13,002 nt of DNA from Candidatus Thorarchaeota archaeon (GCA_003345545.1 PRDH01000043.1:1-13002); one strand, 5' to 3'; counted from the stretch's first letter, positions 2,677 through 13,002 are shown. Program-made: numbers and translations. Notes: generated by a model from the sequence alone, not told the origin.

Positions 2677-3000
2677 ATTAGGATACAAGTTTTGTGACAT
2701 TCATTTATACAAACAAATCTTTCAGCGCGAAAAGAGATGGCTGTTCTTGCTATATTTCCTGGTTCTTTATGTTCATTCATGACAGACTTGGGCTCACTCT
2801 TGCTCATCTCCCTATATACTCCCCCTCTCGCTTTATCTATCCAATGCCGTCATCCTTTTATTCGGTCTTTGCGTTTGAACGGTGATACGACGTATGAGGT
2901 GCTACATATTCTGGCACCCGCATCATTGACTATTGGAATCACCAGGATAGCATCTGAGTTTCCAAAGCCCATACAGAATGCGAGGTTGGGAGTAAGCTTG

Positions 3001-4068
3001 ATGGATGATTTGCTGAACGACCCACTAAACGTAGAATTAATGAAGCGTGTTTGCGGAGGGGAAGGCATTGAAATCAACATAGCCGAGCTCTCCAAACTCC
3101 TTGGGAAACATCGAAACACCATCCAATCAAGGCTAGACCAACTATTTCAACATGAGATAATTGACCGTCCCTTTCATCCCTTTCCTTGGCTCCTAACTGA
3201 GTACCCCCTTCTAGTCGTCGAGAGGATAGGCCTTTCTCGGGACCCTAAGACGAATCTTTGGATTGAGTTGGACCCAAACATATGGGCGGCGTTCTTCTTC
3301 AAAGATGAAGAATACAACACACTGCTGATAGAGCTGCATAGAGATCTCTATGAGTACCAACTTTGGAAGAAGCGGGCTCTGACCGAGGACATGATCTCCG
3401 CCAAATCAGGAATGGACTATATTCCATCGGACCCCTACTATTTGAGCACGAAGGCTATACTGAAATACACCCCCAACGCATCATTCGAAGTCTTCAAGGA
3501 GAACTTCAGACAGGGCCTTCATCTCAAAGTCGGGGGATTGGAACTAGATGAAACCTCGGTAGACCTCCTTGAGGCACTCCTGTTGGGAAAGGGTATACAT
3601 ACCAATCCAAATAAGCTGGCGGAGCTTCTCAATGTGCATCGAAGAACAGTCCTGAGACGGCTGACGCTTCTTCTAGACGAAAAGATAATCCTCCCTCCTG
3701 TCTGCAGATTCCCTAGAATATGGACGCCACCTGAGTACTTCATAGTCATTTCTCTGTTAGAGATAATGAAGAACAAAGACAGGATTGTGAAGACGCTGTC
3801 TGAAGACCCGCACATATCATTCTTAGTGGAAGCTAACGTCGGAAGATACAATCTCTTGGCTCTCAATAGCTCCTACAGGATGAGCGACCATCTTGCATGG
3901 GAAGAAGGTTATGACCAGAGGTTCTCGGGAACTTTCGGCGCTGTCAAGAACTTCTATCTTTCTCCTGCAATGACTTTTGCTATTCATCAGCAGTACGTCG
4001 CACTAGCCTATCTAAACTCACGAGCTGACTATCTACGTGGGAGAATGCTGATGAAAACAATCAGGTAA
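3001..4068 (+). CDS. Lrp/AsnC-like transcriptional regulator with two tandem wHTH + effector-domain repeats (355 aa)
   Basis: Two similar HTH units: DPLNVELMKRVCGGEGIEINIAELSKLLGKHRNTIQSRLDQLFQHEII and DETSVDLLEALLLGKGIHTNPNKLAELLNVHRRTVLRRLTLLLDEKII. Each is followed by a RAM-like region (DPNI..EYNTL; DPHI..GRYNLL). ATG 3001 chosen (GGGAGT upstream); the frame is open from 2737. Confidence 0.8.
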   Translation: MDDLLNDPLNVELMKRVCGGEGIEINIAELSKLLGKHRNTIQSRLDQLFQHEIIDRPFHPFPWLLTEYPLLVVERIGLSRDPKTNLWIELDPNIWAAFFFKDEEYNTLLIELHRDLYEYQLWKKRALTEDMISAKSGMDYIPSDPYYLSTKAILKYTPNASFEVFKENFRQGLHLKVGGLELDETSVDLLEALLLGKGIHTNPNKLAELLNVHRRTVLRRLTLLLDEKIILPPVCRFPRIWTPPEYFIVISLLEIMKNKDRIVKTLSEDPHISFLVEANVGRYNLLALNSSYRMSDHLAWEEGYDQRFSGTFGAVKNFYLSPAMTFAIHQQYVALAYLNSRADYLRGRMLMKTIR

Positions 4069-5238: not shown

Positions 5239-6489
5239 TCAGCTCTTGAGGTCTACGACTCTATGCTCCTTTCTGCTTCTCTCAGCGGCAAAGGCCATCA
5301 AGTGTGTTTCAAGCGTTTCATCCTGCCCTGAGAGAATCTTGCTTGGATCATTCTCGACTACTGCTGAAACAAATGCGTGAATCAGCGCATAGTCGCCTCC
5401 GCCATGGTCCGCAAGCGACGGAGGTGTTTCAGTAGAAATATCCACGACCTCGGACCTGCCCGTCAAGAACTCGTAGACTTGGATTTTGGTGCCGTTGCCG
5501 TAGATCTCCCCTCTGGTGCCGAAGATGCGGGTCTCTCTCGGCCTTGCTTTGGCAAATGCGGTCATGGTGAATGAGGCAGTTACACCACCCTCGAACTCCA
5601 TGTTCACAACTTGATGGTCCACAACATCGTTGTCGCACTCGTATACGCACCTACCGTATGGCCCATCTCGGAGTGCTTTGATGACACCTGCTGATGTTAC
5701 GTCTGAGGTAACGACACTCACAGGCCATCCTGTGACTCCTCGTTTGATGAAACCAAGGTAGATCCTCTTTGCCGAATAGGGGCAATCTGGTTCATAATCA
5801 CACTCTAGGCAGTTACTGCCTGCAATGGCAGGCTTATTCTCCTTCTTGAAATGTGTAAGGGATCCGAACGAGGAAACTGTGACACATCTCTTACCAATGA
5901 TATATCTGATCCAATCCAAGTCGTGGCAGGATTTTGTGAGCAGCATGAAGGAGGATTCTCTCTCATTTCTCCAATTGCCTCTGACAAACGAGTGTGCCTG
6001 GTGCCAGAATCCGACGGGCTCAAGGTGTTGTATACTGACAATTTCTCCGATAAGTCCAGAATCGACGATTGACTTGAGCTCCTGTGTGTATCTCGTATAT
6101 CGAAGAACATGCGCTACTGCGAACATGATAGTCTTTCCTGTGACTGCCTTAACAATGTCTCGGCAGCTCTTCTCATCCGGAGCCATTGGTTTTTCAAGGA
6201 GAATATGATAGCCCCTCTTCGCGAAGGCAATGGCAGGGTCTCGATGCATCTGGTCCTGAGTCGTGATGAGTACAGCATCTGCGAATTTATCCCTCTTCGC
6301 CATGTCTTTCCAGTCCTTGAAGACATTCTCCTCGGGAATATTGTATTCGAGAGCCATCTTCTCTCGGTAGAACTCGCGTGGCTCAGCGACGCCAACGATT
6401 CGAGCTCTGTCAGGATGTTCTCTGGCGTATGATGCATAGACGAACCCTCGGTCTCCAGCACCTGCAATAATCATCTCCATAGGCTTCAT
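5239..6489 (-). CDS. Gfo/Idh/MocA family NAD(P)-dependent oxidoreductase
   Basis: Rossmann GAGDRG, LLEKPMA, HVLRY, HSFVRGNWR, KSCHDLD, YGRCVYECDNDVVD, HGGGD. Confidence 0.95.
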   Translation of the reverse strand: MKPMEMIIAGAGDRGFVYASYAREHPDRARIVGVAEPREFYREKMALEYNIPEENVFKDWKDMAKRDKFADAVLITTQDQMHRDPAIAFAKRGYHILLEKPMAPDEKSCRDIVKAVTGKTIMFAVAHVLRYTRYTQELKSIVDSGLIGEIVSIQHLEPVGFWHQAHSFVRGNWRNERESSFMLLTKSCHDLDWIRYIIGKRCVTVSSFGSLTHFKKENKPAIAGSNCLECDYEPDCPYSAKRIYLGFIKRGVTGWPVSVVTSDVTSAGVIKALRDGPYGRCVYECDNDVVDHQVVNMEFEGGVTASFTMTAFAKARPRETRIFGTRGEIYGNGTKIQVYEFLTGRSEVVDISTETPPSLADHGGGDYALIHAFVSAVVENDPSKILSGQDETLETHLMAFAAERSRKEHRVVDLKS

Positions 6490-7578: not shown

Positions 7579-7844
7579 CAGTTACAAGTATCATGATAAT
7601 GGAACTCGTTGAGGAGCTTGATAGTGCGTGAATCTTCTAGGTTTGACCTTCAATACACCAGTCACCGCAGAGTAATTTCTTACTTCCCTCGGGAACGAGG
7701 TAATTTCAGCCCGAATTATCATTGATGACAACTGATTCGAGTCTGATGGATGCGAGCCGATTGTGTTTTTGGATGGTGCCATAGTTCATGCCACCTAAAG
7801 GATTCTCAGTCAACCTCATAAGAATACAAGAAACATCTACATCT

Positions 7845-8690
7845 ATGCAGCTTCCTGCTCGACGAGCTTACCATGTGATATATGATACTTCTCTATATGA
7901 GTCGATTAGGTATGCTGCAGAGAATGACTGGACTGGCATTGTTCCAGACATTGGCGTCCCATTATTCTCGCCTGAGAGAATTACATCCGAGGAGAGAGTA
8001 CGTCTGCGGGAGTTATCAAGAGATCTCTCCATTGAGTGGGGATTTCATGCACCCGGCGATGATGTAAACCTCATGTCGACGTATCCTCCAATCAGAACTG
8101 GAGTCATCTCGTACTTCAAGCAAATAATCAATCTGGCCAGAGAGCTCAGTACAGGCCCCACCAATCTAGTTGTGCATCCTGGAATCCTCCCGAGCTTCGA
8201 AAAGGCGGGGAATCAGCCATCAGATAGTTTCAGTCAGCAATACCATTCTGTCTATGCTCAAGTCCTGCGCGAGAATCTCTCCGAGCTTCTTGCACATGCT
8301 CGTCCGCATGTTCGTCTGGTGATTGAGAACGTCTATTGGACACCACTTGTTCGCGAAGTGATTGAACATCTAATACCTCAGGGTCTGAAGCTTTGTCTTG
8401 ATATACCCAAACTCTACGGTTTTGACCTGAAGCTGAGAGAGTCTGACTGGAGTCTATTCCAGAGATACAAGGGCTCAATCGAGGTTGTCCATATTCATGA
8501 CATCATTCCGCAGATTGGAAGCCATCAGGTTGTAGGAAATGGGCTTATCGACTTCCAAGAAACATTGAGTTTTCTCAGCAAACTACCAACAAAACCCCAG
8601 TATGTGTTTGAAGTCAGGCCTCGAGAGGAGGCACATAGAAGTCTGATGGGAATTGGCGAGATCATGAGGATTTTCGGTTATGACTTGTAG
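7845..8690 (+). CDS. Sugar phosphate isomerase/epimerase family (xylose isomerase-like / AP endonuclease 2 TIM barrel)
   Basis: GFHAPGDDVN, VVHPG, LVIENV, LCLD, VHIHD, HQVVGNGLIDF, VFEV. ATG 7845 preferred; frame open from 7788. Confidence 0.88.
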   Translation: MQLPARRAYHVIYDTSLYESIRYAAENDWTGIVPDIGVPLFSPERITSEERVRLRELSRDLSIEWGFHAPGDDVNLMSTYPPIRTGVISYFKQIINLARELSTGPTNLVVHPGILPSFEKAGNQPSDSFSQQYHSVYAQVLRENLSELLAHARPHVRLVIENVYWTPLVREVIEHLIPQGLKLCLDIPKLYGFDLKLRESDWSLFQRYKGSIEVVHIHDIIPQIGSHQVVGNGLIDFQETLSFLSKLPTKPQYVFEVRPREEAHRSLMGIGEIMRIFGYDL

Positions 8691-8789
8691 CTTCTCTAGG
8701 ATCAGACGTACTCCAATGAAGGATAGCACGACAAATACGACTACTCCGATCACCAGCAGGACTGCTGCTGCCGTGATTTCCCAGTTTAT
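8583..8789 (-). pseudogene. Small single-TM ORF with an ATA start (mutated start, non-canonical start, or permease C-terminal remnant)
   Basis: Reads INWEITAAAVLLVIGVVVFVVLSFIGVRLILEKLQV. SD GAGGTG (8797-8802) is 7 nt upstream and the ATA overlaps the TAA of the upstream gene. First in-frame stop is at 8583-8585, inside the convergent isomerase gene. Confidence 0.45.
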
Positions 8790-9565
8790 ACCTTGACACC
8801 TCTCGTATGGGATCGTGCTCTCAGAACATTCCTGATTTCTATGAAAGCATCCAATGTCTCTCTATTCAGGACTCGGTTCCCACGTCGGGTTCGTTTTGAT
8901 GGCATGTGTTTCGCAGGCGTTCTTCCAAAGGCTCTCATCTCTCCGAGAATGAAGTCACGTAATTCCTCGTGGAACGTGATGCCCTCGATTCTCTCCTCAG
9001 ATGCATCTGAGGTCAGTCTTTGAATAAGGAGTGCAGCAAGTCCGGTTGCTTGTGCCACCGTTGAACCACCCGCGGTTTCTATCAACACTGTTCCAATTCG
9101 GAACAGTCTGTCGAACGGCCCCCTGCGTGTCCGCACATTGACCACGGTGCGGAATGGCAAATGCCTCTTTGTGATGTTGATGATGCCCTTACGTGAGTAA
9201 ATCTCTGGGATTGCATCACCCGACCAACCTATTGCTGAATACTCGATTCTCCTCACATAGACGAATGAGTAGATTGAGCCAAGGGCAAAGAAGACTGCTG
9301 CAGCTATGATGTAGATCAGGCTTGCTGTCTCCCAGCCGATAATGGTCAGGATCTCTAGTGGTTCAAATGCTGCAAGGGCAATCTCCAAAAACCAAGGGCT
9401 GTCAAGTCCAATGAAGAGCACTCGTATTGCGAGCCAGATGAATGCAATAACAGTTCCTACTTTAAGCATCTTCTTGTACAGGAATGCATTGCTTGGCCTG
9501 AACACTCTACCACTAGTGATGGGTTCAATTGGCGGTCTTATGAGTCGTTCCTCATCCTGAGTCAT
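8786..9565 (-). CDS. bPH_2 (bacterial PH / DUF304, YdbS-like) membrane protein, paralog 4 (divergent, basic)
   Basis: Two TM segments, then KGIINITKRHLPFRTVVNVRTRRGPFDRLFRIGTVLIETAG..IEGI. ATG 9565 aligns with the paralog N-termini; GTG 9574 is an alternative. Confidence 0.88.
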   Translation of the reverse strand: MTQDEERLIRPPIEPITSGRVFRPSNAFLYKKMLKVGTVIAFIWLAIRVLFIGLDSPWFLEIALAAFEPLEILTIIGWETASLIYIIAAAVFFALGSIYSFVYVRRIEYSAIGWSGDAIPEIYSRKGIINITKRHLPFRTVVNVRTRRGPFDRLFRIGTVLIETAGGSTVAQATGLAALLIQRLTSDASEERIEGITFHEELRDFILGEMRAFGRTPAKHMPSKRTRRGNRVLNRETLDAFIEIRNVLRARSHTRGVKV

Positions 9566-9577
9566 AGGGTACACGCT

Positions 9578-10300
9578 TCACTTTCTTTCTTCTCTCAATA
9601 GGTCCCGAATCTCTCGCAAGACCAGCAGAATCTCATCCTCAAGGTTGTCTTCTGTTCTTTGAACTGCTTCTTCCTCAGGTAGTACAACTTCAGTTCCTGT
9701 CACATAGGGGTCCTTGAACCTCCGCAACTCTCTCAGAATGAAGTCTCTCAGTTCTTCATAAAATGTGATACCCTCAAGTTTCTCCTCTGCGGCTTGCGTT
9801 GTTCCGGAAAATCCTGCTGTTTCAATCTCCACTGAACCTATACTGAATAGCCTGTCAAAGAGACCGGCTCTGCTTGCGATATTCGTAATCGTTCTAAACG
9901 GAACATGTTTCCTTGTTATGTTGATGATTCCTTTCTTTACGAATATCTCTGGCATTGCTTCTCCTGAACGGGCAATCACCGAGTACTCGATGGACCTCAG
10001 ATAGATGGGGATAATGATGAGTGCGGGAATCAACCAGATTGCTGTAATGACCCAATACCAGATATTCAGAGTCAGCCACCAATACTGGTAGAAGAACTCC
10101 GAGGTCGCGTTCGACCCTGTTATCCAGTCGGTAAGCCAGAGTGCTACGGAAATAGATCCAACGATAATCACCCAGAGCATCACCGCAGTGAAGACTCCCA
10201 CGAACCACATCTTATTTCTGAATGCTCTCGAAGGCTTGAACACCTTACCACTTGACACATTCTCCATTGGGGGCCTGATTACCTTTCCTTCGTCTGCCAT
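9578..10300 (-). CDS. bPH_2 membrane protein, paralog 3
   Basis: Two TM segments, KGIINITRKHVPFRTITNIASRAGLFDRLFSIGSVEIETAG..LEGI, C-terminal EILLVLREIRDLL. Confidence 0.92.
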   Translation of the reverse strand: MADEGKVIRPPMENVSSGKVFKPSRAFRNKMWFVGVFTAVMLWVIIVGSISVALWLTDWITGSNATSEFFYQYWWLTLNIWYWVITAIWLIPALIIIPIYLRSIEYSVIARSGEAMPEIFVKKGIINITRKHVPFRTITNIASRAGLFDRLFSIGSVEIETAGFSGTTQAAEEKLEGITFYEELRDFILRELRRFKDPYVTGTEVVLPEEEAVQRTEDNLEDEILLVLREIRDLLREERK

Positions 10301-10302
10301 CT

Positions 10303-11061
10303 CTATCTCTCCTCTCTACCTGTTTTTCTGTCGATGCGTTCCAACACATCTCTAATCTCATGCAGTGTCATCAGTATCTCGTCGTCCAGACTTTCATGCA
10401 GTCTAGGAACAGGTTCATCTCGAGGCAAGACGACTTCCGTGCCCGTGACATAAGGGTCTCTGAATCTTCTTAGTTCCTGCAAGATGAAATCTCTGACCTC
10501 CTCGTAGAAGGTTATTCCCTCCAGCTTCTCTTCAGGTCCTGTTTGGCCGCCTGGACCACCTGAGTATCCGGCCGTCTGAATCTCGACAGTGCCAATCCCA
10601 AACAATCTATCGACAGGACCTGCTCGCGAACTGATATTCGTAATTGTCCTGAATGGAACATGTTTCTTGGTCACGTTGATGAGGCCCTTGCGGACATAGA
10701 TCTCTGGCATTACCATTCCTGACTTCGAGATGACACTGTACTCAATTCTTCGTATGTAGAGTGGAATGGCCACCATAATGGGCAGCCACCAGAAGAGAAG
10801 CGCGATTGCGTACCAGAAGTTGAGCATGGGGAACACATCATAGAAAACAGCAAAGAAGGTCGCCCAGGTTCCACTATTGTCCATCATGTTGAAAAAAGCC
10901 CCCAATATGAGTATTCCATTGGCCACTAGCCAGAACCATATTGCAAGAAAGCTGTATTCGGACCATTCCTTGTAGTAGAATCTGGTGTCTGGTCTGAATA
11001 CTCTCCCACTTGTTACATCTTCCATTGGTGGTCTAATGATACGTCCTTCTTCGTTTCCCAT
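10303..11061 (-). CDS. bPH_2 membrane protein, paralog 2
   Basis: Two TM segments, KGLINVTKKHVPFRTITNISSRAGPVDRLFGIGTVEIQTAG..LEGI, C-terminal EILMTLHEIRDVL. SD GAGGT upstream. Confidence 0.92.
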   Translation of the reverse strand: MGNEEGRIIRPPMEDVTSGRVFRPDTRFYYKEWSEYSFLAIWFWLVANGILILGAFFNMMDNSGTWATFFAVFYDVFPMLNFWYAIALLFWWLPIMVAIPLYIRRIEYSVISKSGMVMPEIYVRKGLINVTKKHVPFRTITNISSRAGPVDRLFGIGTVEIQTAGYSGGPGGQTGPEEKLEGITFYEEVRDFILQELRRFRDPYVTGTEVVLPRDEPVPRLHESLDDEILMTLHEIRDVLERIDRKTGREER

Positions 11062-11085
11062 TTTTCCTAACCTCGCCTTTTCTAC

Positions 11086-11817
11086 TTACAACTTGGTCCT
11101 AAGAATCTCTCGGATATCGCGAATAGCCTTCAGAATCTCGTCATCCAGAGAGCCCTCAATCCTTGGGACTACATCGTTTTGTGGAACGGGTATCTCAGTG
11201 CCTGTTGCATAGGGTTCTCTGAATCTCCTGAGCTCAGCCAAGACAAATCGCGTGAGTGTTTCGTAGGCCTTAATGCCCTCAAGCTTTTCCTCGGGTCCAG
11301 TCTGACCACCGGGGCCGCCTGAGTAGCCAGCTGTCTGAATCTCAACATTGCCGATTCCGAATAGTCTGTCAATTATGCCTGCTCTCGAGGAGATGTTCGT
11401 TATGGTTCTGAATGGAACGTGTTTCTTAGTCACGTTGATGATTCCCTTACGACAGTAAATCTCTGGGGATGCCTCTCCTGTTTCAGAAATCACTGAATAC
11501 TCTATCGAGCTAATGTAGATTGGTATTGCTACCATGGCGGGAATCAGCCAAGCAAGCTCTGCAACAATGGTCCAATAGTTCACGATGCCCAACCATTGAG
11601 TGATAAAGAGTGTATGACTCCATCCCTCATCCAATGATACCAGAAATGATATACCGTAGACAGATCCAATGACCATGAACCAGGTCATGGTGGCTGCCAA
11701 CGCTGCACTGAACCAGTACTTATTTTGCAAGGCCTTTGACGGCCTGAACGTCTTTCCGCTGGTTATACCCTCAATTGCTGGAAAATATCCAGCTGCTACT
11801 TCCTCGTTCAAACTCAT
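11086..11817 (-). CDS. bPH_2 membrane protein, paralog 1
   Basis: Two TM segments, KGIINVTKKHVPFRTITNISSRAGIIDRLFGIGNVEIQTAG..LEGI, C-terminal EILKAIRDIREIL. ATGA overlap with the upstream gene. Confidence 0.92.
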   Translation of the reverse strand: MSLNEEVAAGYFPAIEGITSGKTFRPSKALQNKYWFSAALAATMTWFMVIGSVYGISFLVSLDEGWSHTLFITQWLGIVNYWTIVAELAWLIPAMVAIPIYISSIEYSVISETGEASPEIYCRKGIINVTKKHVPFRTITNISSRAGIIDRLFGIGNVEIQTAGYSGGPGGQTGPEEKLEGIKAYETLTRFVLAELRRFREPYATGTEIPVPQNDVVPRIEGSLDDEILKAIRDIREILRTKL

Positions 11818-12470
11818 TCACCTTCTTGTGTTTCTCTCTGATAGCGAGGAAGTTGTTTCGCTCCAAGCTTGCCGAAGATTCTGATAGACTGTTGAGTCAT
11901 ATACATCTCTTCTTCCTTAGGGTTCAGAGTGAGATTGTATTCCTTTAGGATTGTATCGAGAGTCTCTCTGCATTCCTCGAGTTTTGGACACTGCTTTCCA
12001 TCAGTCTGAGCTAGGGGGTCATATGGTGTTCCATCACAGAGCTTTCCGCCATAGTTGGTATGCTCATACCAAATGATCACACCCAGTCCAAGAGTAAAGA
12101 CAATGTACACATTTGTGTTCGCCTGGTAGTCAAAGCCTGTGAGGATGCCCTTCTCTCCGTTGACATTCTCGATATCCAGTCGATGACTGTTTGCATGCTG
12201 CTTGAGGCTATCCTCGATCTTTGACTTGGCTCTAGTAAGAACCCTGGAAACATAGGCTGAGCTTGTGAACTGCATCCTGCTAATCTTCTCTTTCTCCTTC
12301 TCTGCCTCTTTTGGATTGCTGATTCTGCTATCAATTTCCTTGGCAAGGATACTAAAGATATAGTCAGGAATGTGCTTGGGCTTCTCATACTCACTGAAGA
12401 TATCAGATGTGGGCTTACCGTGATGGTATTCCCACCAGACCACTGCTTCATGAGTCGAGAGTAGTCCCAT
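11814..12470 (-). CDS. Putative transcriptional regulator: sigma70-region-4-like HTH with an insertion, plus a C-terminal His/Cys3 metal-binding region
   Basis: LSTHEAVVWWEYHHGKPTSDIFSEY and TSSAYVSRVLTRAKSKI match the LS..E..V......G....EIA...S...V...L.RAK.KL pattern. C-terminal WYEH-x7-C-x15-C-x5-C. First gene of the operon, next to a palindrome array. Confidence 0.65.
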   Translation of the reverse strand: MGLLSTHEAVVWWEYHHGKPTSDIFSEYEKPKHIPDYIFSILAKEIDSRISNPKEAEKEKEKISRMQFTSSAYVSRVLTRAKSKIEDSLKQHANSHRLDIENVNGEKGILTGFDYQANTNVYIVFTLGLGVIIWYEHTNYGGKLCDGTPYDPLAQTDGKQCPKLEECRETLDTILKEYNLTLNPKEEEMYMTQQSIRIFGKLGAKQLPRYQRETQEGE

Positions 12471-12495
12471 AGTGTTCTTCCTCGCATCACGCGCA

Positions 12496-12510
12496 ATTTA
12501 ACCCTTTCTG
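12496..12510 (-). promoter_or_regulatory. BRE/TATA promoter for a leaderless regulator-bPH operon transcript
   Basis: Minus strand CAGAAAGGG-TTAAAT ends 26 bp upstream of ATG 12470. No SD is visible before that ATG. Confidence 0.65.
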
Positions 12511-12591
12511 GTCAAACTTTACTGCGCTGTGGTAAACATTTATATGCGAATGAATATAAATCTTTACCATCGTGCTGTAAACATTTACAGC
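12511..12591. promoter_or_regulatory. Array of four palindromic operator-like boxes GTAAA-NN-TTTAC
   Basis: GTCAA-AC-TTTAC 12511-22, GTAAA-CA-TTTAT 12532-43, ATAAA-TC-TTTAC 12556-67, GTAAA-CA-TTTAC 12577-88 (extends to GCTGTAAA-CA-TTTACAGC). Start-to-start spacing is 21, 24 and 21 bp. Confidence 0.8.
12531..12545 (+). promoter_or_regulatory. Putative BRE/TATA promoter of the ABC ATPase gene, overlapping box 2
   Basis: GGTAAACA-TTTATAT, which predicts a TSS near 12570. Confidence 0.5.
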
Positions 12592-12607
12592 TCACGAGAT
12601 GATAACG

Positions 12608-13002
12608 ATGGCACGAAACGGAACGGTAATTCGAACTGAAGGTCTGAGCAAGAGCTTTGGCTCTGTTCAGGCTGTTAGAGATTTGAACCTAGAGGTTTCC
12701 TCAGGCAGCAGATTCGGTTTCCTCGGCCCAAACGGAGCTGGGAAGACGACCACGGTAAGAGTGTTGTCAGGTCTCTTGAAGCAGACTAGCGGCAATGCCA
12801 CAGTCTGCGGTTTTGATGTGAACACTCAACGAGATGCAATCAAGGCTGCGACGGGTCTACTTCCAGAGTCACCTGGGCTCTACTCAAAGCTGTCTGCCGT
12901 GGAATTCCTAGAGTTCATAGGAGCACTTCACGGTCGGAATGGGGAGGCTCTGAATAGACGCATTGACAGTCTGCTTTCCATTCTTGGATTGGAAGGTCGA
13001 CA
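12608..13002 (+). CDS. ABC transporter ATP-binding protein (ABC-2/multidrug type), 3'-truncated by the window
   Basis: MARNGTVIRTEGLSKSFGSVQAVRDLNLEVSSGSRFGFLGPNGAGKTTT (Walker A), then GLLPESPGLYSKLSAVEFLEF. SD-like GAGATGA upstream; in-frame ATG 12599 is an alternative. Not in the ORF track. Confidence 0.93.
   Translation, partial: MARNGTVIRTEGLSKSFGSVQAVRDLNLEVSSGSRFGFLGPNGAGKTTTVRVLSGLLKQTSGNATVCGFDVNTQRDAIKAATGLLPESPGLYSKLSAVEFLEFIGALHGRNGEALNRRIDSLLSILGLEGR

Follow-up and report, generated by a model that had tools for sequence, protein, structure and literature searches.

The stretch of DNA analysed here (the window) is an entire 13,002-bp contig, C43, from a metagenome-assembled Candidatus Thorarchaeota genome of 2.69 Mb, and close homologs of its proteins are found in Thorarchaeota. 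The window contains a locus that is probably a self-contained divergon, in which a regulator that we call REG controls both its own operon of genes for bPH_2 membrane proteins and a divergent operon for an ATP-binding cassette (ABC) exporter. REG (11814-12470, minus strand; 218 aa) is encoded at the head of five packed minus-strand genes, of which the other four encode bPH_2 paralogs 1 to 4. The gene for PH1 (11086-11817, minus strand; 243 aa) overlaps the REG stop codon by 4 bp (ATGA), and those for PH2 (10303-11061, minus strand; 252 aa), PH3 (9578-10300, minus strand; 240 aa) and PH4 (8786-9574, minus strand; 262 aa from a GTG start) follow after gaps of 24, 2 and 3 bp, respectively; an alternative ATG for PH4 at 9565 gives a gap of 12 bp. 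Across a 128-bp spacer (12471-12598) that carries four 12-bp palindromic boxes lies the 5' part of a gene for a DrrA-like ABC ATPase (12599-13002, plus strand; 134 codons of 259 aa; PF00005). This layout, taken from the list of open reading frames (ORFs) and the junction sequences, agrees with an earlier reading made from the window's sequence by itself (hereafter, the sequence-only reading), which had described five packed same-strand genes with a 4-bp overlap and gaps of 24, 2 and 3-12 bp, diverging from an ABC ATPase over a spacer with four palindromes.

The pairing of REG with bPH_2 genes recurs in nearly every locus compared. These loci comprise 20 from the genomes of the phylum and 80 from a scan of GTDB species genomes, and they belong to Thorarchaeota, Bathyarchaeota and unclassified archaea. 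One to five bPH_2 genes directly follow REG in 99 of the 100 (20/20 and 79/80), which is the opposite of the inconsistent adjacency to bPH_2 or ABC genes that the sequence-only reading had named as an outcome counting against its proposal. In the single exception (L098:5381-6280), compositionally different sequence with a MerR/excisionase-like helix-turn-helix (HTH) stands right after REG, perhaps as the result of an insertion or of chimeric assembly. A profile search detects REG in 109 of 400 genomes of the phylum, concentrated in three families, and strong bPH_2 matches occur in the same families. Within the window's own family, 70 of 85 genomes have REG and 72 have bPH_2, with neither present in 11.

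The boxes in the spacer have the form GTAAA-N2-TTTAC and are located at 12511-12522, 12532-12543, 12556-12567 and 12577-12588, spaced by 21, 24 and 21 bp. One is a perfect match to GTAAANNTTTAC, and the other three each have one mismatch. By chance, 0.25 matches to GTAAANNTTTAC are expected per window, compared with the 4 seen, a number that is reached in none of 200 shuffles. Only 13 matches occur in the 2.69-Mb genome, and their sole cluster is the spacer between REG and the ABC gene. The pentamers GTAAA and TTTAC are present in 852 and 918 copies genome-wide, and are approximately threefold rarer than base composition predicts. Across 11 congeneric loci, all four boxes are invariant, whereas the sequence separating the two inner ones varies. 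On the side of the ABC gene, the outer box is longer, and reads CTGTAAA-N2-TTTACAG. Sequences resembling a TATA box (TTTATAT / ATATAAAT) overlap the inner boxes; the outer pair, CTGTAAA-N2-TTTACAG and GTAAAG-TTTGAC, has no such resemblance and yet does not vary among congeners. A BRE/TATA-like element, GAAAGGGTTAAAT, and a conserved GAGG ribosome-binding site are found upstream of REG. Two promoter layouts are compatible with these elements, both of them guesses, and the boxes would fall on core promoter elements in either.

The box accompanies REG well beyond the genus. When GTAAANNTTTAC with at most one mismatch was counted in the 80 scanned loci, 109 instances were found in 15.7 kb of sequence upstream of REG (6.9 per kb), compared with 26 in the other 1.14 Mb (0.023 per kb), an enrichment of approximately 300-fold. 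Moreover, several of the 26 boxes found elsewhere still precede a true REG start or an ABC gene. Loci in Bathyarchaeota usually have a single perfect box, 18-50 bp before the REG start. In one Thorarchaeota locus (L078), 4.4 kb separates REG from the ABC operon, which nonetheless retains two boxes, and a Bathyarchaeota ABC gene that is 2.1 kb from REG has a perfect box at its start. The split arrangement in L078 is the best available evidence on the point, and suggests that the exporter is under the same control as REG. The shared operator predicted by the sequence-only reading is consistent with these comparisons, in which the association of box and REG holds across two phyla and the box stays with the ABC operon where the arms are separated. 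Distant REG-like genes whose products have a different recognition helix carry other palindromes (AAGGTAA-N3-TTACCTT and TATTAC-TAGTAATA) on their own TATA regions. Outside the spacer, one perfect GTAAACGTTTAC is present in the genome, on contig C44 (G000:C44:107509, corresponding to L141:3010-3021), between genes of the MarR-like and TraB/PrgY/GumN families. This site was considered as a second member of the regulon and rejected, because approximately 4 perfect matches are expected in the genome from base composition alone, and its occurrence fits chance.

REG is a soluble protein that, in its AlphaFold2 (AF2) model, consists of an N-terminal HTH of the sigma-70 region 4/LuxR-like kind, a long helix (residues 71-95) and a C-terminal alpha/beta domain. 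The predicted local distance difference test (pLDDT) score of the model is 90, and that of the C-terminal domain modelled alone is 73. Both the model and the alignment reveal that the HTH is split by a two-helix insertion at residues ~30-65, which measures ~35-50 aa in Thorarchaeota members. The HTH of Bathyarchaeota REG proteins is uninterrupted and has the same recognition helix. In its N-terminal part, the alignment conforms to the pattern LS.HE..VW....GK.TSDIA ... YVSRVL.RA..KI, and the portion that forms the recognition helix, YVSRVL.RA..KI, does not vary within the family. Residues His137, Cys145 and Cys161 never vary and Cys167 seldom does, even in REG-like paralogs at 23-28% identity, and this His-Cys3 pattern points to a metal or redox site. 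The sequence-only reading had called the protein a metal-site HTH regulator, and the split HTH and the His-Cys3 set are indeed real features of a conserved family.

All 239 homologs of REG are named hypothetical proteins, and they are mostly 167 aa long in Bathyarchaeota and 190-250 aa in Thorarchaeota. No significant match was found in Pfam (22 members searched, E <= 10), NCBIfam, the PDB sequence profile or PADLOC. The superfamily is small, with 202 clusters at E <= 0.001 among 1.84 billion representatives, and its few longer members carry only an extra HTH or nothing additional. By these searches, REG represents a previously undescribed and unannotated archaeal family. When the model was compared exhaustively with known structures by using VIA-align, the top ~40 matches were all HTHs of the LuxR/GerE or sigma-70 region 4 type, plus EnfR (8HNO). 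These matches cover residues 1-95 with Z scores of 4-5 and a root-mean-square deviation (rmsd) of 1-2 A over ~50 residues, and 8HNO fits the REG HTH with an rmsd of 1.0 A over 47 residues at 28% identity. Foldseek searches of the PDB returned nothing below E 0.3 for either the full model or the C-terminal domain alone. With VIA-align, the C-terminal domain peaks at Z 3.2 with unrelated proteins, and no fold match was obtained, Tfx included. The best match of the HTH family PF00196 to REG has an E value of 0.18, occurs in one of 22 proteins and is below threshold; among distant REG-like proteins, the E values are 0.001-0.004, or 17-19 bits compared with a cut-off of 23.5.

REG-like paralogs of ~155-170 aa that share the HTH and the His-Cys3 set also were observed. 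Those of Thorarchaeota (L134, L135, L139 and L140) have no bPH_2 neighbour. In another Asgard family (L136-L138), three bPH_2 genes follow the REG-like gene, and a different palindrome is located on the TATA region.

Among characterized regulators, EnfR (TON_1525, 8HNO), a member of the Tfx family, is an archaeal regulator of the sigma region 4 type that binds a promoter pseudo-palindrome as a dimer (PMC10570040). REG follows the same overall plan as the small archaeal proteins Tfx and EnfR (MTH0916; TON_1525), in which an N-terminal HTH like that of sigma-70 region 4 is joined by a long helix to a C-terminal alpha+beta domain, and its neighbours under a protein language model include Tfx clusters at 0.76-0.77, which is a lead only. 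Membership in the Tfx family was suggested by these neighbours. However, TFX_C (PF14601) does not match at E <= 10 in 22 REG proteins and is not found in the genome, and so, despite the shared plan, REG is not a Tfx protein. Also unlike Tfx, REG has the His-Cys3 set in its C-terminal domain and, in Thorarchaeota, the insertion in its HTH. The best fold neighbours of REG are the LuxR/FixJ/NarL (GerE-type) proteins EsrB, DesR, DegU, TraR, GerE and NarL. In contrast to these proteins, REG lacks a receiver or autoinducer domain, matches PF00196 below threshold everywhere and has an archaeal distribution. Sites bound by NarL have a 7-2-7 inverted-heptamer geometry, and the extended outer box, CTGTAAA-N2-TTTACAG, resembles them in this respect.

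The ABC arm could be followed past the end of the window. The last 125 bp of C43 are identical to one end of another contig, C18, and joining the two completes the 259-aa ATPase. A protein of 557 aa with ~12 hydrophobic segments is encoded 5 bp downstream of the ATPase in the joined sequence. The join is sound, because orthologous loci on single contigs have the same order of ATPase and permease. The sequence-only reading had anticipated ABC permease genes beyond position 13002, and the 12-transmembrane (TM) permease gene on C18 is directly downstream of the ATPase. Both halves of the ATPase match PF00005, and among NCBIfam models the window's part scores best with drrA, below the cut-off. The closest subfamily model to an orthologue is drrA (TIGR01188; E 7e-61), at 206 bits compared with a cut-off of 312, so by its sequence the protein is an ABC ATPase nearest to DrrA and is not a certified member of that subfamily. 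The permease has no Pfam or NCBIfam match at E <= 10 (PF01061, PF16949 and PF09847 included). Its protein-language-model neighbours, at 0.96-0.97, are clusters of putative 12-TM ABC exporters that partly match PF16949 or PF09847, and offer only a lead. The pair resembles DrrAB-type exporters (ABC-2, type V) in that drrA is the model nearest to its ATPase and that a polytopic permease is encoded directly downstream, but the score is below the cut-off and the permease is one 557-aa chain of ~12 TM segments that matches nothing in Pfam.

Adjacency of the exporter could be evaluated in 73 loci, and a divergent ABC ATPase and permease are present in 43 of them. These include 35 of 39 loci with multiple bPH_2 genes, compared with 8 of 33 with a single bPH_2 gene, and the exporter is not adjacent in loci labelled as Bathyarchaeota. 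The proposal of a module comprising REG, bPH_2 and exporter holds to the extent that the exporter is a frequent partner, but not as a universal core. Because the exporter is frequent rather than universal, the core, as judged from these gene neighbourhoods, is an autoregulator together with bPH_2 membrane proteins. One genus of Thorarchaeota has an extended arm in the order ATPase-permease-ATPase (L073, L074, L078, L079, L081-L083, L086, L089, L092 and L093), and its bPH_2 arrays are the largest as well, at up to five genes. A second permease is found further out in L073, L079 and, in another genus, L070.

All four PH proteins of the window pass the threshold of PF03703, at 32.3-41.6 bits compared with a cut-off of 22. 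The E values are 8.7e-9 for PH1 (36 bits), 7.7e-10 for PH2, 1.2e-7 for PH3 and 1.5e-10 for PH4, and relatives of these proteins have a precomputed PF03703 annotation and the name YdbS-like. The paralogs share 37-54% identity. According to a simple hydropathy scale, each has two hydrophobic segments, at approximately residues 35-60 and 79-105, with the PH domain starting from ~105. Conservation extends to an N-terminal tail, IRPP.E..TSG..FRP, and a C-terminal helix in each of them. Positive-inside reasoning predicts that the bPH_2 domain and the conserved N-terminal tail face the cytoplasm. The most divergent copy is PH4, which has an insertion in its PH domain and a basic tail, and is 37% identical to PH1. 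A tree of 78 bPH_2 proteins places PH4 in a deep separate clade of last-position paralogs, and PH3 in a clade of penultimate paralogs from several genera. PH2 groups with the position-2 genes of its closest relatives, and across genera the separation of positions 1 and 2 is less clean. Position-specific clades that span several genera imply that the array is old and ordered, rather than the product of recent tandem duplication. Such ancient, order-conserved paralogs are suggestive of a hetero-oligomeric bPH_2 complex.

Most Thorarchaeota loci with multiple bPH_2 genes also have an ORF of 30-33 aa with a single TM segment, located -3 to +19 bp from the stop codon that ends the last bPH_2 gene (for example, L055:13682-13774 and L073:13621-13713). 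Loci with a single bPH_2 gene have no such ORF after it. In the window (region 8583-8788), the copy has ATA where relatives have ATG, and the stop codon of the relatives is absent. The copy looks like a decayed form of an ORF that is intact in relatives. A 56-aa ORF at 8583-8753 (minus strand), which is a remnant or variant of this micro-ORF, marks the left edge of the locus. It extends in frame for 108 bp into the 3' end of a gene of convergent orientation that encodes a TIM-barrel protein; its distal part is antisense to this gene and is interrupted by stop codons in relatives. The 56-aa ORF was rejected, as listed, as a sixth gene. Two further small hydrophobic ORFs, absent from the window, occur between paralogs 1 and 2 in sister species (L061, L062, L063, L120 and L133). 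They encode proteins of ~32 aa with one TM segment (MVSAARL.VKVVVL...) and ~70 aa with two (for example, L063:11406-11718). Judging from their sequences, the micro-ORFs encode plain hydrophobic TM helices, and look more like small membrane subunits than like cationic amphipathic peptides.

Proteins related to the bPH_2 paralogs have been studied in Bacillota. YdbST protects against amylocyclicin (PMC8144471), and YdbS/YdbT-like bPH_2 proteins encoded beside ABC transporters are needed for export of enterocin DD14, with the same set of bPH_2 and ABC genes carried by the geobacillin 6 locus (PMC8657885, PMC10311245). Also, PHb domains of a related family form rings, and Xu et al. proposed that membrane-anchored PHb families are pores or transporters (PMC2817789). 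The thorarchaeal proteins resemble YdbS/YdbT, DdE/DdF and Geo6B/C in having two TM segments per bPH_2 domain and in being encoded by tandem genes, often beside an ABC transporter. In contrast to the combination of YdbS with a triple-domain YdbT, there are four single-domain paralogs in the window (one to five elsewhere), and no YdbT-like triple-PH protein is encoded at the locus. The window paralogs have 240-262 aa, with the extra N-terminal tail and C-terminal helix, whereas YdbS has 159 aa, and control is assigned to a dedicated local regulator instead of an extracytoplasmic function (ECF) sigma factor. The locus likewise differs from leaderless-bacteriocin loci of the ddABCDEFGHIJ type, because it lacks the pair of YdbS and triple-PH YdbT, although an ABC transporter is present. 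The window contains no ORF for a structural bacteriocin, and the small ORFs of relatives encode hydrophobic TM helices. Among anti-phage systems in PADLOC, there is no match for REG, the four bPH_2 proteins or the permease, and the ATPase matches only generic ABC/AAA models. A literature search, in which archaeal lineages were not queried by name, found no published description of this system.

The remaining genes of the window are metabolic and appear unrelated; they encode glutamate dehydrogenase, a GFO/IDH/MocA oxidoreductase (5239-6489) and, near the latter, an AP_endonuc_2/xylose-isomerase-like TIM-barrel protein (7788-8690, plus strand). The TIM-barrel gene, which is convergent to the bPH_2 array, is a conserved convergent neighbour of the array in 26 loci, down to 47% identity, and plain synteny may account for this conservation. 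A 443-aa protein (2737-4068, plus strand) has several sub-threshold HTH matches (PucR-type and AsnC-type), and may be another uncharacterised regulator that looks unrelated to the REG/bPH_2 locus.

From the gene linkage, the association of operator with regulator, the folds and the conserved residues, we infer a direction of control, a signal, an oligomer and a physiological role. REG would be a sequence-specific DNA-binding protein, probably with one dimer on each 12-bp palindrome. The four boxes, phased two helical turns apart, would cover the TATA-like elements and the probable start sites of both divergent promoters. Because of this coverage, repression is the more likely direction, and REG most likely represses its own operon and the exporter operon jointly; activation, with REG acting from the box beside the BRE-like element, is less likely than repression. 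Release might occur upon a signal that is read by the His-Cys3 site (zinc, Fe-S or thiol redox), or might be brought about through the co-translated bPH_2 membrane proteins. The strict pairing of REG with bPH_2 and their translational coupling across phyla make a physical link plausible. The effectors would be a membrane assembly of four differentiated YdbS-like proteins, probably a mixed ring, to which Thorarchaeota would add the DrrA-type ATPase and the 12-TM permease. Together, these proteins might pump out or confer resistance to a membrane-active compound or peptide, or shield the membrane in some other way. Sequence comparisons support the regulatory architecture well. The role in membrane stress or antimicrobial response is suggested by analogy only, with Bacillota YdbS/YdbT and leaderless-bacteriocin loci.

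Several observations weigh against this model of an autoregulated divergon. The HTH fold matches of REG are modest (Z 4-5), and all of its Pfam HTH matches are sub-threshold. The positions of promoters and start sites are guesses, and the second BRE/TATA-like element before REG permits another layout. Because half-sites overlap TATA-like sequence, the conservation of the boxes could in part reflect promoter elements. The compared loci are relatives, so the locus counts overstate their independence, and the exporter is not essential to the core function, given its absence beside most single-bPH_2 loci. Finally, a search for fused forms of REG (383-2000 aa) found none, which is weak evidence. 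In another explanation, the boxes would not be read by REG, and the palindromes instead would be a bidirectional TATA/BRE architecture or the site of another regulator, with REG serving as a cytoplasmic subunit or assembly factor of the bPH_2 complex. The overlap of the two inner boxes with TATA-like sequence, the large insertion that interrupts the HTH in Thorarchaeota and the failure of every HTH family to pass its Pfam threshold are in line with this explanation. However, the outer boxes are invariant without being TATA-like, and the palindrome remains with REG in Bathyarchaeota despite another gene context and promoter; there, moreover, the HTH is uninterrupted and has the same recognition helix. 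The box is also very rare otherwise (13 matches in 2.69 Mb), and its half-site is ~3-fold under-represented. We therefore regard an operator that is not recognized by REG as highly improbable.

Two other explanations were considered. The locus might be a module for peptide export or immunity, as in leaderless-bacteriocin loci of Bacillota, with a small peptide encoded at or close to the locus and REG as only a local repressor. The requirement for YdbS/YdbT-like proteins and ABC transporters in enterocin DD14 export and the same gene set at geobacillin 6 (PMC8657885, PMC10311245) fit this idea, as do the conserved micro-ORFs of ~30-32 aa and ~70 aa within or right after the array in many Thorarchaeota loci. 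It is nonetheless improbable, since the micro-ORFs encode plain hydrophobic TM helices and not cationic amphipathic peptides, the window's own copy appears to be decayed, no YdbT-like triple-PH protein is present, and loci with one bPH_2 gene lack a micro-ORF and, mostly, an exporter alongside. Alternatively, the bPH_2 proteins might be not only effectors but also a sensor that holds REG at the membrane, in the manner of an anti-sigma factor with its ECF sigma factor, and releases it upon perturbation. The PH domain or the N-terminal tail would then sequester REG, and REG would be set free to act on the boxes when the membrane is damaged or the His-Cys3 site is altered; this site may play the part that the zinc site has in ZAS anti-sigma systems, or may be purely structural. 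Such tethering is attractive because REG and bPH_2 remain strictly adjacent and translationally coupled across phyla, even without an exporter, and because the DNA-binding domain of REG is sigma region 4-like, with many fold neighbours that were solved in complex with anti-sigma factors. The cytoplasmic location predicted for the bPH_2 domain and N-terminal tail also is compatible with it. Yet no fusion of REG to bPH_2 was found in the search of proteins of 383-2000 aa, and plain autoregulation of an effector operon explains the adjacency equally well. A membrane-tethered switch thus seems unlikely, and it is doubtful that REG and a bPH_2 ring are the archaeal counterpart of the bacterial ECF sigma/anti-sigma switch for envelope stress.

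A local regulator over a membrane or export module is a known kind of system. What is new is an unannotated regulator family and the expansion of bPH_2 proteins in archaea. Few transcription regulators of Asgard archaea and Bathyarchaeota, groups that are largely uncultured, have a known operator, and the locus supplies a predicted regulator-operator pair (REG and GTAAA-N2-TTTAC) that is testable with recombinant protein alone. It also ties an unannotated regulator family to bPH_2 membrane proteins, which are widespread in prokaryotes and whose mechanism is not known, and the tight pairing across phyla suggests that solving the function of either REG or bPH_2 will explain the other. The Thorarchaeota expansion, with up to five order-conserved paralogs, micro-ORFs for membrane proteins and one or two ABC exporters, provides a natural series for study of the role of bPH_2 proteins in the membrane. 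If the sigma/anti-sigma-like switch were true, it would be a new principle of signal transduction for Asgard and TACK archaea, and would give the bPH_2 domain its first molecular role.

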